Origin: a virus
Virus record (IMG/VR): IMGVR_UViG_3300014638_000001
Length of the DNA: 22,211 nucleotides
Reading direction: 5' to 3' (one strand)
Both the position numbers and the translations under genes were made by a program. This document shows positions 5,072 through 20,735 of this stretch, piece after piece. The notes beneath the pieces were generated by a model. The model saw only the letters and a list, made by a program, of their open reading frames with translations. It ran no database searches and was not told the origin of the DNA. How positions within the stretch are numbered: position 1 is the first letter of the stretch; every line of letters starts with the position of its first letter.

Positions 5072-5257
5072 TGTCTTTGTCTCCAGTGTTGAGTGTTTCG
5101 CAGCGTCCAACGTGCAGCGCTGCACCGTGCGATTCGATTGTAACCGAAACGCAAGCGTTTCGAGCGAAAAAAGTCCGGATCGCGTTGATTCTGCTCGCAA
5201 AAAAGCGTGTCGGAACCGAACGTGCATCGCGCGTGCACGTGCTATACTGTTACTGTC

Positions 5258-5923
5258 ATGTCACGAGAGATTGTACCAGTGTTAGTCCCGGTCGTGTTGC
5301 CGACGATCGAGCCGATCAAGTCAACGGATTACAAGGTCAACCCGATCACTGGATGCTGGATCTGGTTAAAGCATTCTGATCCAGAAGGCTATGCGCTCGA
5401 TGACTTTGGCCGGTTTATCGAGCGCCAAGTCTACCGTGAGCACAAAGGCGAGATCCCGGACGGCTATGAGATCGATCATCTGTGCTGGCATCCGAGGTGT
5501 ATCAATCCAGAGCACTTACAGGCTATTACCGGTGTGGAAAACAACCGCGCAAAGCCGACAAATGTGCTCACAATGGAGAAGGCGAAGCAGATCCGTGAGA
5601 AGGCTGCTGCTGGCGTGCCGACCGTAGCCCTAGTGCAAGAATTCGGCGCCGCGCCATCAACTATCCGCAGTGTGCTGCACAACGTGAGTTGGACTGACCC
5701 GGACTACAAGCCAGTTTTGAACTATCACAGCAAGCGAGAAGCTAACCCGCGGACCGTGCGAAGAGTTCGAGCACTTCGCGCAGGCGGGATGTCTTACGGT
5801 GAGATCGTAGACCAGACGCACATCAGGCGCAGCAAAGTGATCGCATACTGCTCTGGTCGATACCTCGGCGAAGAGTTCAACACAGTCTTCACCGACGCAT
5901 CGCCTAGCCAAAAGATAGACTAA
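5258..5923 (+). CDS. HNH homing-type endonuclease with C-terminal HTH-like repeats
   Basis: GCWIW...GY...IPDGYEIDHLCWHPRCINPEHLQAIT..ENN motif; TGcTATACT extended -10 at 5240-5248. Confidence 0.85.
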   Translation: MSREIVPVLVPVVLPTIEPIKSTDYKVNPITGCWIWLKHSDPEGYALDDFGRFIERQVYREHKGEIPDGYEIDHLCWHPRCINPEHLQAITGVENNRAKPTNVLTMEKAKQIREKAAAGVPTVALVQEFGAAPSTIRSVLHNVSWTDPDYKPVLNYHSKREANPRTVRRVRALRAGGMSYGEIVDQTHIRRSKVIAYCSGRYLGEEFNTVFTDASPSQKID

Positions 5924-11752: not shown

Positions 11753-11830
11753 TGGAACGCGGGGTGGGACTCGAACCCACGCATATTCTCCCTTCGGAGG
11801 GGAGCGCCTAATCCTCTCGGCCACCCGCGC
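11753..11830 (-). tRNA. tRNA-Arg(CCG)
   Basis: CTCCC-CTCCGAA-GGGAG; GGA in the D-loop; CCA. Confidence 0.92.
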
Positions 11831-11831
11831 T

Positions 11832-11907
11832 TGGAACCCGCCGCCGGAATCGAACCGGCCTGATCCACTACGGCTACCGGTTTAGGAAACCGGACCGGTA
11901 GGCGGGC
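11832..11907 (-). tRNA. non-canonical tRNA-Arg(CCT): no D-arm, D-loop-like segment 3' of the anticodon arm
   Basis: GCCCGCC-TACCGGT-CCGGT-TTCCTAA-ACCGG-TAGCCGTAGTGGATCAG-GCCGG-TTCGATT-CCGGC-GGCGGGT-TCCA. Confidence 0.8.
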
Positions 11908-11910
11908 TCA

Positions 11911-11986
11911 TGGTGCTCCCGGCGAGACTCGAACTCGCATGTCCATTTACAGTTACCGGTTTAGAAGACCGGGCTGGTACGGGAGC
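11911..11986 (-). tRNA. non-canonical tRNA-Arg(TCT): no D-arm, D-loop-like segment 3' of the anticodon arm
   Basis: GCTCCCG-TACCAGC-CCGGT-CTTCTAA-ACCGG-TAACTGTAAATGGACAT-GCGAG-TTCGAGT-CTCGC-CGGGAGC-ACCA. Confidence 0.8.
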
Positions 11987-12360
11987 GAACTCTTGCTTCT
12001 TTTCATTCCTTTTCGGCGTGTCTCCCGGTGGAGCGCTTCGCTTTTCCATGCTCTGCAAATTGCGCATCTACAGCCTGCCGCATACCTCGCGCCGCCGTGC
12101 CTCATTTTTGGAACGTTATGACGTTTCTTGTGACATCGATGGCAACGCACTTCACATTTCAGTAACTCAGCGTCTCGCCTGTGCTTGGACCAACTCCAGA
12201 TCCGATGATCTACTTTTTGAGATGGCTCCATGTGATCAAGTTCAAGATTTTCAGTGCTCGAACAATCCTTGCAACGCTTACCGGCGAACCATTCTCTACG
12301 TCTACGAGCCATCCACTCACGTTGATATTCTGCCTGCAGTTCCGGGGTAGCCATCGGCAT
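11953..12360 (-). CDS. HNH endonuclease inside the tRNA array
   Basis: CKDC....NLELDH..P..K...I......ELLKCEVRCHRCHKKRH, then HG...Y..GCRC..C; TGaTATCAT -10 is 6 nt before the ATG. Confidence 0.85.
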   Translation of the reverse strand: MPMATPELQAEYQREWMARRRREWFAGKRCKDCSSTENLELDHMEPSQKVDHRIWSWSKHRRDAELLKCEVRCHRCHKKRHNVPKMRHGGARYAAGCRCAICRAWKSEALHRETRRKGMKRSKSSLPYQPGLLNR

Positions 12361-12657: not shown

Positions 12658-12753
12658 TAGATTTTACAGGGAATACGAACACAAGCAGAGCGATGACCTG
12701 AGTGCTCTACTTAACAGGCGGGGCCGAAGGATGGTTGCCATGGAATAGATGTT

Positions 12754-12769
12754 ACTCCTATATAGGAGT
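12754..12769. repeat. 16-bp palindrome ACTCCTATATAGGAGT (copy 3 of 4)
   Basis: Perfect palindrome. Confidence 0.85.
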
Positions 12770-13105
12770 GTCGGTCAAGGAAGAAAGTTTGAAGCCGCTA
12801 CGCTCATTGGGTACCATGATGTTGCTGGCCGCAATGATCTGTGGTGAGTGCCCACAGTAAGTGCAATGGCACCCGTGATATACCAAGCAGCCAGGACGAT
12901 TCTCTGGACATGGTATGTCTTCGAGCGTTGGGTTTCTACAGACTGGGCAGACGTTCCGCGGGATGTCCAGGATCTTAATGCTCTCCGCGCGATAGGCGAT
13001 TTCGGTACCGAATTGTCGCATTTGTAGGTAAGCTGCGTCGTCGTCGAAGGCCATGATGGCGACCCGCATACCGTCTAGCACGTAGAAGAAAAGGCGCTCT
13101 CTCAT
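12758..13105 (-). CDS. Cys/His-rich hypothetical protein (CPVC...CP...GC.V.H.CHCTYC) within the tRNA array
   Basis: ORF from ATG 13105; the upstream part of the track ORF overlaps a structured RNA. Confidence 0.55.
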   Translation of the reverse strand: MRERLFFYVLDGMRVAIMAFDDDAAYLQMRQFGTEIAYRAESIKILDIPRNVCPVCRNPTLEDIPCPENRPGCLVYHGCHCTYCGHSPQIIAASNIMVPNERSGFKLSSLTDTPI

Positions 13106-13522: not shown

Positions 13523-13597
13523 TGGTACCCCGCTCCGGATTTGAACCGGAATTCACAGCTTCGTAGACTGTAGTCCTGTCCGTTGAACGAACGGGGC
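13523..13597 (-). tRNA. tRNA-Arg(ACG)
   Basis: ACAGT-CTACGAA-GCTGT; A20; CCA. Confidence 0.92.
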
Positions 13598-20358: not shown

Positions 20359-20488
20359 TTGGCGGATACTGTTCGGGCTCACACGTAGCTCATTTGGTAG
20401 AGCGCTTCGCCTTCGCTTGAGACGAAGATGTAACTGGTTCAACTCCAGTCGTCCCCGCAAGGGGTTGCTCGAGCGATTTAACCGCCAA
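20359..20488 (+). ncRNA. Y-RNA-like RNA 2 with a tRNA-like domain
   Basis: TTGGCGG/CCGCCAA; ATACT/GATTTAA loop; internal D arm GCTC-ATTTGGTA-GAGC and T arm ACTGG-TTCAACT-CCAGT. Confidence 0.7.
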
Positions 20489-20494
20489 GTAAGT

Positions 20495-20735
20495 TTGGCT
20501 CGTATACTGCGGCTGGTCACACGTTTTCAGCTTAGTAAGCTGAAAATCCAGGTTCGAATCCTGGTCCCTCCACCGGGGAGGTTGAGCGGGGTCTCTCTGC
20601 GGCCCACAGAGAGATTTGTGGAACCGTTCAACCCTCGCGGTGGGGGGATCGTCCAACGGTAGGACATCAACGTCTTTCGGGTGCCGGTGAAAGCTGGTGC
20701 TTGATTGAAAACCAGAAGCGATTTACGCGAGCCAA
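20495..20735 (+). ncRNA. YrlA-like Y RNA 3 (permuted tRNA domain)
   Basis: TTGGCTCGT/GCGAGCCAA; ATACT/GATTTAC loop; T arm (20548-20564), then a closed acceptor-like stem (20565-20648), then a D arm GTCC-AACGGTA-GGAC. Confidence 0.75.

Follow-up and report, generated by a model that had tools for sequence, protein, structure and literature searches.

A re-threaded core in two phage tRNA-Arg genes points to a probable second, non-cloverleaf tRNA architecture

A 32-kb IMG/VR phage fragment (record IMGVR_UViG_3300014638_000001), of which we analysed a 22,211-nucleotide (nt) stretch (the window), carries ~30 transfer RNA (tRNA) genes in an array. Two neighbors in this array, a tRNA-Arg(UCU) gene (gene A) and a tRNA-Arg(CCU) gene (gene B), depart from the cloverleaf (Table 1). 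They are 3 nt apart, and an ordinary tRNA-Arg(CCG) gene starts 1 nt past gene B. Each parses into a 7-base-pair (bp) acceptor stem, a 7-nt connector, a 5-bp anticodon stem with a 7-nt loop, a 17-nt segment (the 17-mer), a 5-bp T stem with a 7-nt loop, a discriminator and CCA. This parse agrees with the initial annotation of the two genes, which had described 76-nt genes with normal acceptor, anticodon and T arms, an encoded CCA, 7-nt connectors and 17-mers that keep TGGA in the remaining loop. All seven acceptor pairs form in both genes (G1·U72 in gene B), the anticodon loop contains U33 and a purine at position 37, and the T loop is encoded with T54, Ψ55, C56 and A58. Only 7 nt separate the acceptor from the anticodon arm, and the D hairpin of a cloverleaf is missing.

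The 155-nt stretch that holds both genes recurs without a difference in three further assemblies of the phage, and an assembly error is therefore not its source. ARAGORN called neither gene, as the initial annotation had anticipated, and Rfam cmscan returned weak tRNA-Sec matches only (E 0.04–0.05; 29 bits against a cut-off of 47). A whole-contig search with RF00005, however, scored gene A at 38.1 bits, above the cut-off of 29, and gene B was absent from its list. In the minimum-energy fold of both genes, a 3-bp helix between the connector and the 17-mer forms with pair probabilities of 0.64–0.77 and contributes ~2–4 kcal/mol.

Table 1 Coordinates of genes A and B, their parts and the adjoining genes.
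Feature	Position	Strand	Details
Gene A, re-threaded tRNA-Arg(UCU)	11911-11986	minus	76 nt; discriminator A73; encoded CCA; A15-U48 Levitt pair equivalent
Gene A connector	11973-11979	minus	U8, A9, D-stem 3' strand (canonical 22-25), position 26; from covariation, with inferred numbering
Gene A anticodon arm	11956-11972	minus	anticodon UCU at 11963-11965; U33, A37, A38
Gene A 17-mer	11939-11955	minus	3-nt linker (44-46); D-stem 5' strand (10-13) at 11949-11952; D-loop (14-21) with G18G19 at 11943-11944 and A20 at 11942; position 48
Gene B, re-threaded tRNA-Arg(CCU)	11832-11907	minus	76 nt; G1·U72; discriminator U73; encoded CCA; G15·G48 Levitt pair equivalent
Gene B connector	11894-11900	minus	U8, A9, D-stem 3' strand, position 26
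Gene B anticodon arm	11877-11893	minus	anticodon CCU at 11884-11886; stem identical to that of gene A
Gene B 17-mer	11860-11876	minus	linker, D-stem 5' strand, D-loop (A20 equivalent at 11864), G48
Ordinary cloverleaf tRNA-Arg(CCG)	11753-11830	minus	1 nt downstream of gene B
HNH endonuclease open reading frame (ORF)	11953-12360	minus	135 aa; phrog_4234, E 9.5e-35; directly upstream of gene A, inside the tRNA array

We scanned viral and metagenome contigs by pattern and kept matches with the three ordinary stems; after two misparsed ordinary tRNAs had been taken out, this gave a family of at least 277 distinct members. Almost all lie on viral or metagenome contigs, and most are unannotated. At least 225 members have Arg anticodons (UCU 101, CCU 55, UCG 33, ACG 28, CCG 7, GCG 1), and at least 52 form an Ile/CAU branch (UAU 23, CAU 17, GAU 12). 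The role in reading AGA and AGG that the initial annotation had proposed thus fits the anticodons of the two window genes, but the family as a whole is wider.

We assessed covariation in 156 members, aligned on anchors independent of the disputed pairs, against a null of 60 tree-based alignments in which substitutions were re-dealt on the tree. Connector position 4 (the 12-23 equivalent), whose partner is the base two before the A of the TAR anchor, is Watson–Crick paired in all 156 members (CG 121, GC 21, UA 11, AU 3). Position 5 (the 11-24 equivalent) is likewise paired in 156/156 (GC 94, CG 32, AU 21, UA 9), and position 6 (the 10-25 equivalent) in 74%. The three pairs score 177, 275 and 140, against at most 104 under the null, and they rank with the pairs of the acceptor, anticodon and T stems; joint changes on the tree at D-stem pairs amount to 9/9 and 17/21. 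Among 63 metagenome members for which the paired positions were absent from the search pattern, pairing reaches 100%, 100% and 95%. Slid partners pair in 7–50% of cells only, and RNAalifold predicts the same structure unaided from a plain alignment. The covariation in homologues that the initial annotation had proposed as a check is therefore present. Between the two window genes themselves, the pairing it had read from CGG:CCG versus CAG:CTG is confirmed, but they differ by one compensatory pair only, and the statistics rest on the homologues.

Comparison across the family thus shows a D-stem formed by the connector and the 17-mer, which is predicted to stack on the anticodon stem. The pairs of this helix (11-37, 12-36 and 13-35) surround the anticodon stem and cross no helix. 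The helix is therefore nested, giving a three-way junction and no pseudoknot; a description as a pseudoknot was rejected on this ground, there being no crossing Watson–Crick helices. The gap between it and the anticodon stem is a 1x3 internal loop. The TA bulge across which the initial annotation had drawn the pairing requires an extra pair found in gene B only, and that pair is Watson–Crick in 16% of the family. A fourth pair, 14-34, was rejected as a family feature by the pairing check on the 63 metagenome members. On this comparative evidence, the D-arm is re-threaded rather than lost, with its stem built from strands on both sides of the anticodon arm. The initial description of the D-arm as absent was thus too strong: there is no D hairpin, but a D-stem exists.

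The displaced loop retains the residues that make tertiary contacts in an ordinary tRNA. U8, A14, G18 and A21 are kept across the family, A21 in 166/166 Arg members where the pattern left this position free. At the Levitt pair 15-48, A15 occurs with U48 in 199/199 members and G15 with G48 or C48 in 15/18. Gene B has G15·G48, the unusual Levitt pair of Escherichia coli tRNA-Cys (PMC9976931). The G18G19 dinucleotide, which the initial annotation had linked to docking on the T loop, is present in the displaced loop in 275/275 members with C56, including 57/57 in which GG lay outside the pattern. The only two members with U56 both have A19, so that A19-U56 replaces G19-C56, which is the compensation expected if the displaced loop docks on the T loop. 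The carriers are re-threaded tRNA-Arg(CCG) genes at L604:1509-1585 and near L642:1046-1122.

The layout is formally accounted for by a single swap of two adjacent blocks, 10-21 (the 5' D strand and D-loop) and 22-46 (the 3' D strand, position 26, the anticodon arm and a short variable segment). The order is [1-9][22-46][10-21][48-76], compared with [1-9][10-21][22-46][48-76] in the cloverleaf. The swap changes neither the 76-nt length nor the helices nor how many steps lie between core and anticodon; it alters only three backbone links (9 to 22, 46 to 10 and 21 to 48). In the tRNA core, residues 9, 21, 46 and 48 are stacked neighbors, and the D-stem is engaged in triples by 9 and 45; the new links would therefore connect residues that are already close. 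When the blocks were swapped back in silico, ARAGORN called the right anticodon in 204/217 members and in both window genes. The native order gave 0/217 and a shuffled D block 121/217, and because ARAGORN is this permissive the swap-back is a moderate control only.

Bacterial tRNA-Arg identity comprises A20, C35, U/G36 and A/G/U73 (PMC9976931, Table 1 therein). Genes A and B both have A20 in the displaced loop, together with C35 and U36, and position 73 is A in gene A and U in gene B. The initial annotation had singled out A20 as the retained Arg determinant, and this is borne out by the family: A20 occurs in 85/86 Arg members with the position unforced, compared with 0/51 Ile/CAU members, in which position 20 is U or C and position 73 is invariably A. 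The split runs in the direction predicted by synthetase recognition, although a Fisher value for two groups related by descent overstates the case.

The family members also appear to fill empty anticodon slots. An ordinary gene with the same anticodon is present at the same locus for 2/169 re-threaded genes, compared with 19.7 ± 3.0 expected by permutation (loci partial). On the contig studied here, the ordinary tRNA-Arg genes are CCG and ACG (the latter at 13523-13597), which complete an Arg set to which the re-threaded genes contribute UCU and CCU. In each of two complete phage genomes, which carry 31 and 27 ordinary tRNAs, ACG is the sole ordinary Arg anticodon, and UCU and CCU are present in re-threaded form. 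Three cultured phages carry members: Felix O1 (unannotated), VpaE1_ev78 (annotated as 'tRNA' with no isotype) and Limnohabitans phage DC31 (unannotated). An Arg[AGA] tRNA had been expected in the Felix O1 genome (PMC3185647), and in our reading the tRNA reported missing is the unannotated re-threaded member there, at positions 25951-26032 of AF320576. Phage Sf14 has an ordinary Arg-TCT gene at the matching place in the gene order, after Ile-GAT (PMC12482277).

Taken together, these results suggest that genes A and B are working phage tRNA-Arg genes for AGA (UCU) and AGG (CCU) with a re-threaded core, a reading to which we assign a probability of roughly 0.8. The transcripts would be made together with the array, trimmed by host RNase P and 3' nucleases and folded into an ordinary L shape. 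Host arginyl-tRNA synthetase (ArgRS) would charge them through A20, C35, U36 and A/U73, EF-Tu would deliver them through the normal acceptor and T arm, and they would supply rare AGA and AGG codons during infection. Class I synthetases approach tRNA on the face that points away from the variable region, which might explain why Arg, Ile and CAU tRNAs tolerate the rearrangement. More speculatively, the form may persist through evasion of host defences that target tRNAs or through neutral spread after one rare rearrangement.

Several points weigh against this reading. The third D-stem pair is disrupted in 26% of Arg members. The search patterns imposed U8, A9, U13, A14 and R15, and usually GG and TTC, so that the invariance of these positions is partly built in; several patterns also restricted position 48 to G or T, which bears on the 15-48 pair. 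That pair has ~5 joint changes on the tree and, because changes are few, does not pass the all-pairs null (E ~0.85). The A19-U56 change is probably one event, as both carriers are similar CCG genes. Finally, AGA and AGG make up 20% of the Arg codons in 15 window ORFs (38/191), and there is therefore no strong local codon need.

The main rival accepts the same fold and denies decoding: the RNA would be a tRNA-shaped decoy or donor, serving to lure anticodon nucleases or other defences that attack tRNA, as an ArgRS sponge or as an Arg donor for non-ribosomal use. The structural and identity evidence suits a charged mimic equally well, the modest local use of AGA and AGG is in keeping with one, and a covariance-model search of 150 other alphaproteobacterial genomes, with 31 candidates scored per genome, found no family member. 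Yet a decoy is hard to reconcile with six Arg and three Ile/CAU anticodons, each in a standard 7-nt loop with U33 and a purine at 37, or with members that replace ordinary genes of the same anticodon, since a decoy would more likely stand beside a working copy. We consider it improbable, if clearly ahead of the remaining alternatives.

Far less likely is a route in which cutting and ligation of the transcript restore a normal cloverleaf, as for permuted and split tRNA genes in algae and archaea. Such genes do exist, and the two-block swap does yield a canonical 76-nt tRNA-Arg. The route would, however, take three cuts and three ligations within a folded core, where known permuted genes need one re-joining, and the genes studied here are already 76 nt long, with no intron, extra sequence or bulge-helix-bulge motif. 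We give equally little weight to a tRNA that simply lacks the D-arm and has a long, unstructured variable loop, of the mitochondrial tRNA-Ser(AGY) kind, in which the 3-bp helix would be incidental. No D hairpin can be drawn and the helix is short and weak, but two of its pairs are held in every aligned member across all four pair types, slid partners fare far worse, and 15-48 and 19-56 covary. Least probable are pseudogenes or an assembly artefact, which would explain the ARAGORN misses but are contradicted by the identical assemblies, by 277 distinct relatives with intact stems and by slot filling; the preference of the initial annotation for an alternative topology over pseudogenes is thus supported by the relatives, the covariation and A20.

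Beyond the two window genes, we consider it probable, with less assurance, that the family represents a second, non-cloverleaf phage tRNA architecture that arose by an internal block swap, is charged by the host and decodes on the ribosome, spans at least nine anticodons (Arg, Ile and CAU) in unrelated phages, is invisible to gene finders and is undescribed. The cloverleaf is held to be universal for tRNAs outside mitochondria. If the re-threaded RNAs decode, it would be one of at least two wirings of the same L shape, and the translation machinery would read shape rather than connectivity. Arg and Ile tRNAs would then be absent from inventories of phage tRNAs and from codon-usage studies, with Felix O1 as a documented case. 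A working alternative scaffold would also bear on tRNA origins, on recognition by modification enzymes and anticodon nucleases and on the design of orthogonal tRNAs. E. coli and a classic laboratory phage offer a direct test of the claim.

Outside phages, a loose-pattern scan of bacterial and archaeal genomes gave one true member among the matches listed, on an Allorhizobium metagenome-assembled genome (MAG) contig; several other matches were rejected as misparsed ordinary tRNA-Ser genes, and a plasmid match in pMPPla107 was rejected as an ordinary tRNA array. The family covariance model scores the window genes at 93 and 89 bits, a circular result not used as evidence. Two members stand singly outside tRNA arrays, the Allorhizobium one (L157:2183-2260, on a 122-kb contig) and one in a provirus (L013:1392-1467); these could be integration-site copies or cellular residents. 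The Ile/CAU branch (UAU, GAU and CAU; L481-L596, for example L572:4089 and 4761, L588:4884 and 4970) is marked by U20 and A73, often with a U·U or A·U-type mismatch at 27-43 and a GAAA linker. Its CAU members may be either Met or lysidine-Ile tRNAs.

The HNH ORF upstream of gene A overlaps the 5' end of that gene by its last 34 nt, and its stop codon TAA lies just past the gene A anticodon stem. Relatives of this ORF adjoin ordinary tRNAs in two other loci, and the loci of HNH relatives gave no link between the upstream HNH gene and the re-threaded fold. A second HNH gene lies at 5207-5923 (plus strand). A perfect 16-bp palindrome (12755-12770) upstream of the Leu-Cys-Ser-HNH-Arg cluster overlaps the sole sigma70-like match, at 12749-12778, which is at chance level (1 found, 1.2 expected). 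A tRNA-like element at 20375-20460 (plus strand) has well-formed D and T arms together with an anticodon hairpin whose loop is CTTGAGA, scores 36 bits with Rfam and is missed by ARAGORN. An extra 6–7 nt precede its anticodon stem (CTTCGC occurs twice), its acceptor pairs poorly, and it is probably decayed. In a further tRNA-like remnant at 20498-20575 (plus strand), an 8-bp hairpin whose loop reads TTAGTAA (anticodon AGU) precedes a T arm and CCA, and a D arm is not clearly recognizable. Elsewhere, a complete 136-kb phage (G004; L603-L609) has a UCA-anticodon tRNA (ARAGORN 'SeC') beside a normal Trp-CCA gene, and G000:C1:5440-5518, on the contig that holds the window but beyond its bounds, is an ordinary tRNA-Ile with the anticodon UAU, rare in bacteria.

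The closest known relatives are ordinary bacterial and phage tRNA-Arg genes (RF00005; the E. coli argU/argW type and the window tRNA-Arg(CCG)). They share with genes A and B the 7/5 branch, the 5-bp anticodon stem with its 7-nt loop, the 76-nt length and CCA, as well as the identity set A20, C35, U36 and A/U73 (PMC9976931) and the core residues U8, A14, R15, G18, G19 and A21. The re-threaded genes differ in having no D hairpin: their D-stem encloses the anticodon arm, their D-loop is the junction strand before the T arm, and a three-way junction stands in place of a four-way one. Because the D hairpin, one of the features that define the cloverleaf, is lacking, we do not file them under RF00005.

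Circularly permuted and split tRNA genes carry their parts in non-standard order and are processed back to a cloverleaf, and the tRNA-like domains of transfer-messenger RNA (tmRNA) and bacterial Y RNA have a D-loop/T-loop elbow with no normal D hairpin and no decoding anticodon arm. In the re-threaded genes, by contrast, two internal blocks are swapped, while the anticodon arm is intact and the 5' and 3' ends are those of a normal tRNA. D-armless mitochondrial tRNA-Ser(AGY/UCU) also replaces the D hairpin with a short connector and is not a cloverleaf (PMC7609411), but it has lost the D-stem, the D-loop and the D/T-loop contacts and works with relaxed mitochondrial machinery. In the re-threaded genes nothing is lost: the D-stem and GG loop are kept, and the tertiary partners covary.

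Allo-tRNAs, 8/4 or 9/3 tRNAs (PMC5389517) and tRNA-Sec, to which the weak Rfam matches point, are likewise non-standard bacterial or phage tRNAs, found by metagenome mining. They remain cloverleaves with a changed acceptor/T-stem split, whereas both window genes and the family keep 7/5, rather than 8/4, 9/3 or 8/5, and change the connectivity of the core. The allo-tRNA paper mentions no tRNA-Arg or displaced D-loop (Mukai et al., PMC5389517), and phages do not figure in a 2020 review of non-canonical tRNAs (PMC7609411). Our literature search, in which subscription journals were poorly covered, found no description of a re-threaded layout; a prior description is rather unlikely, though a real chance. 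These comparisons suggest that the re-threaded genes form a new structural class of tRNA, distinct from the mitochondrial D-armless type, from allo-tRNAs and from permuted genes.
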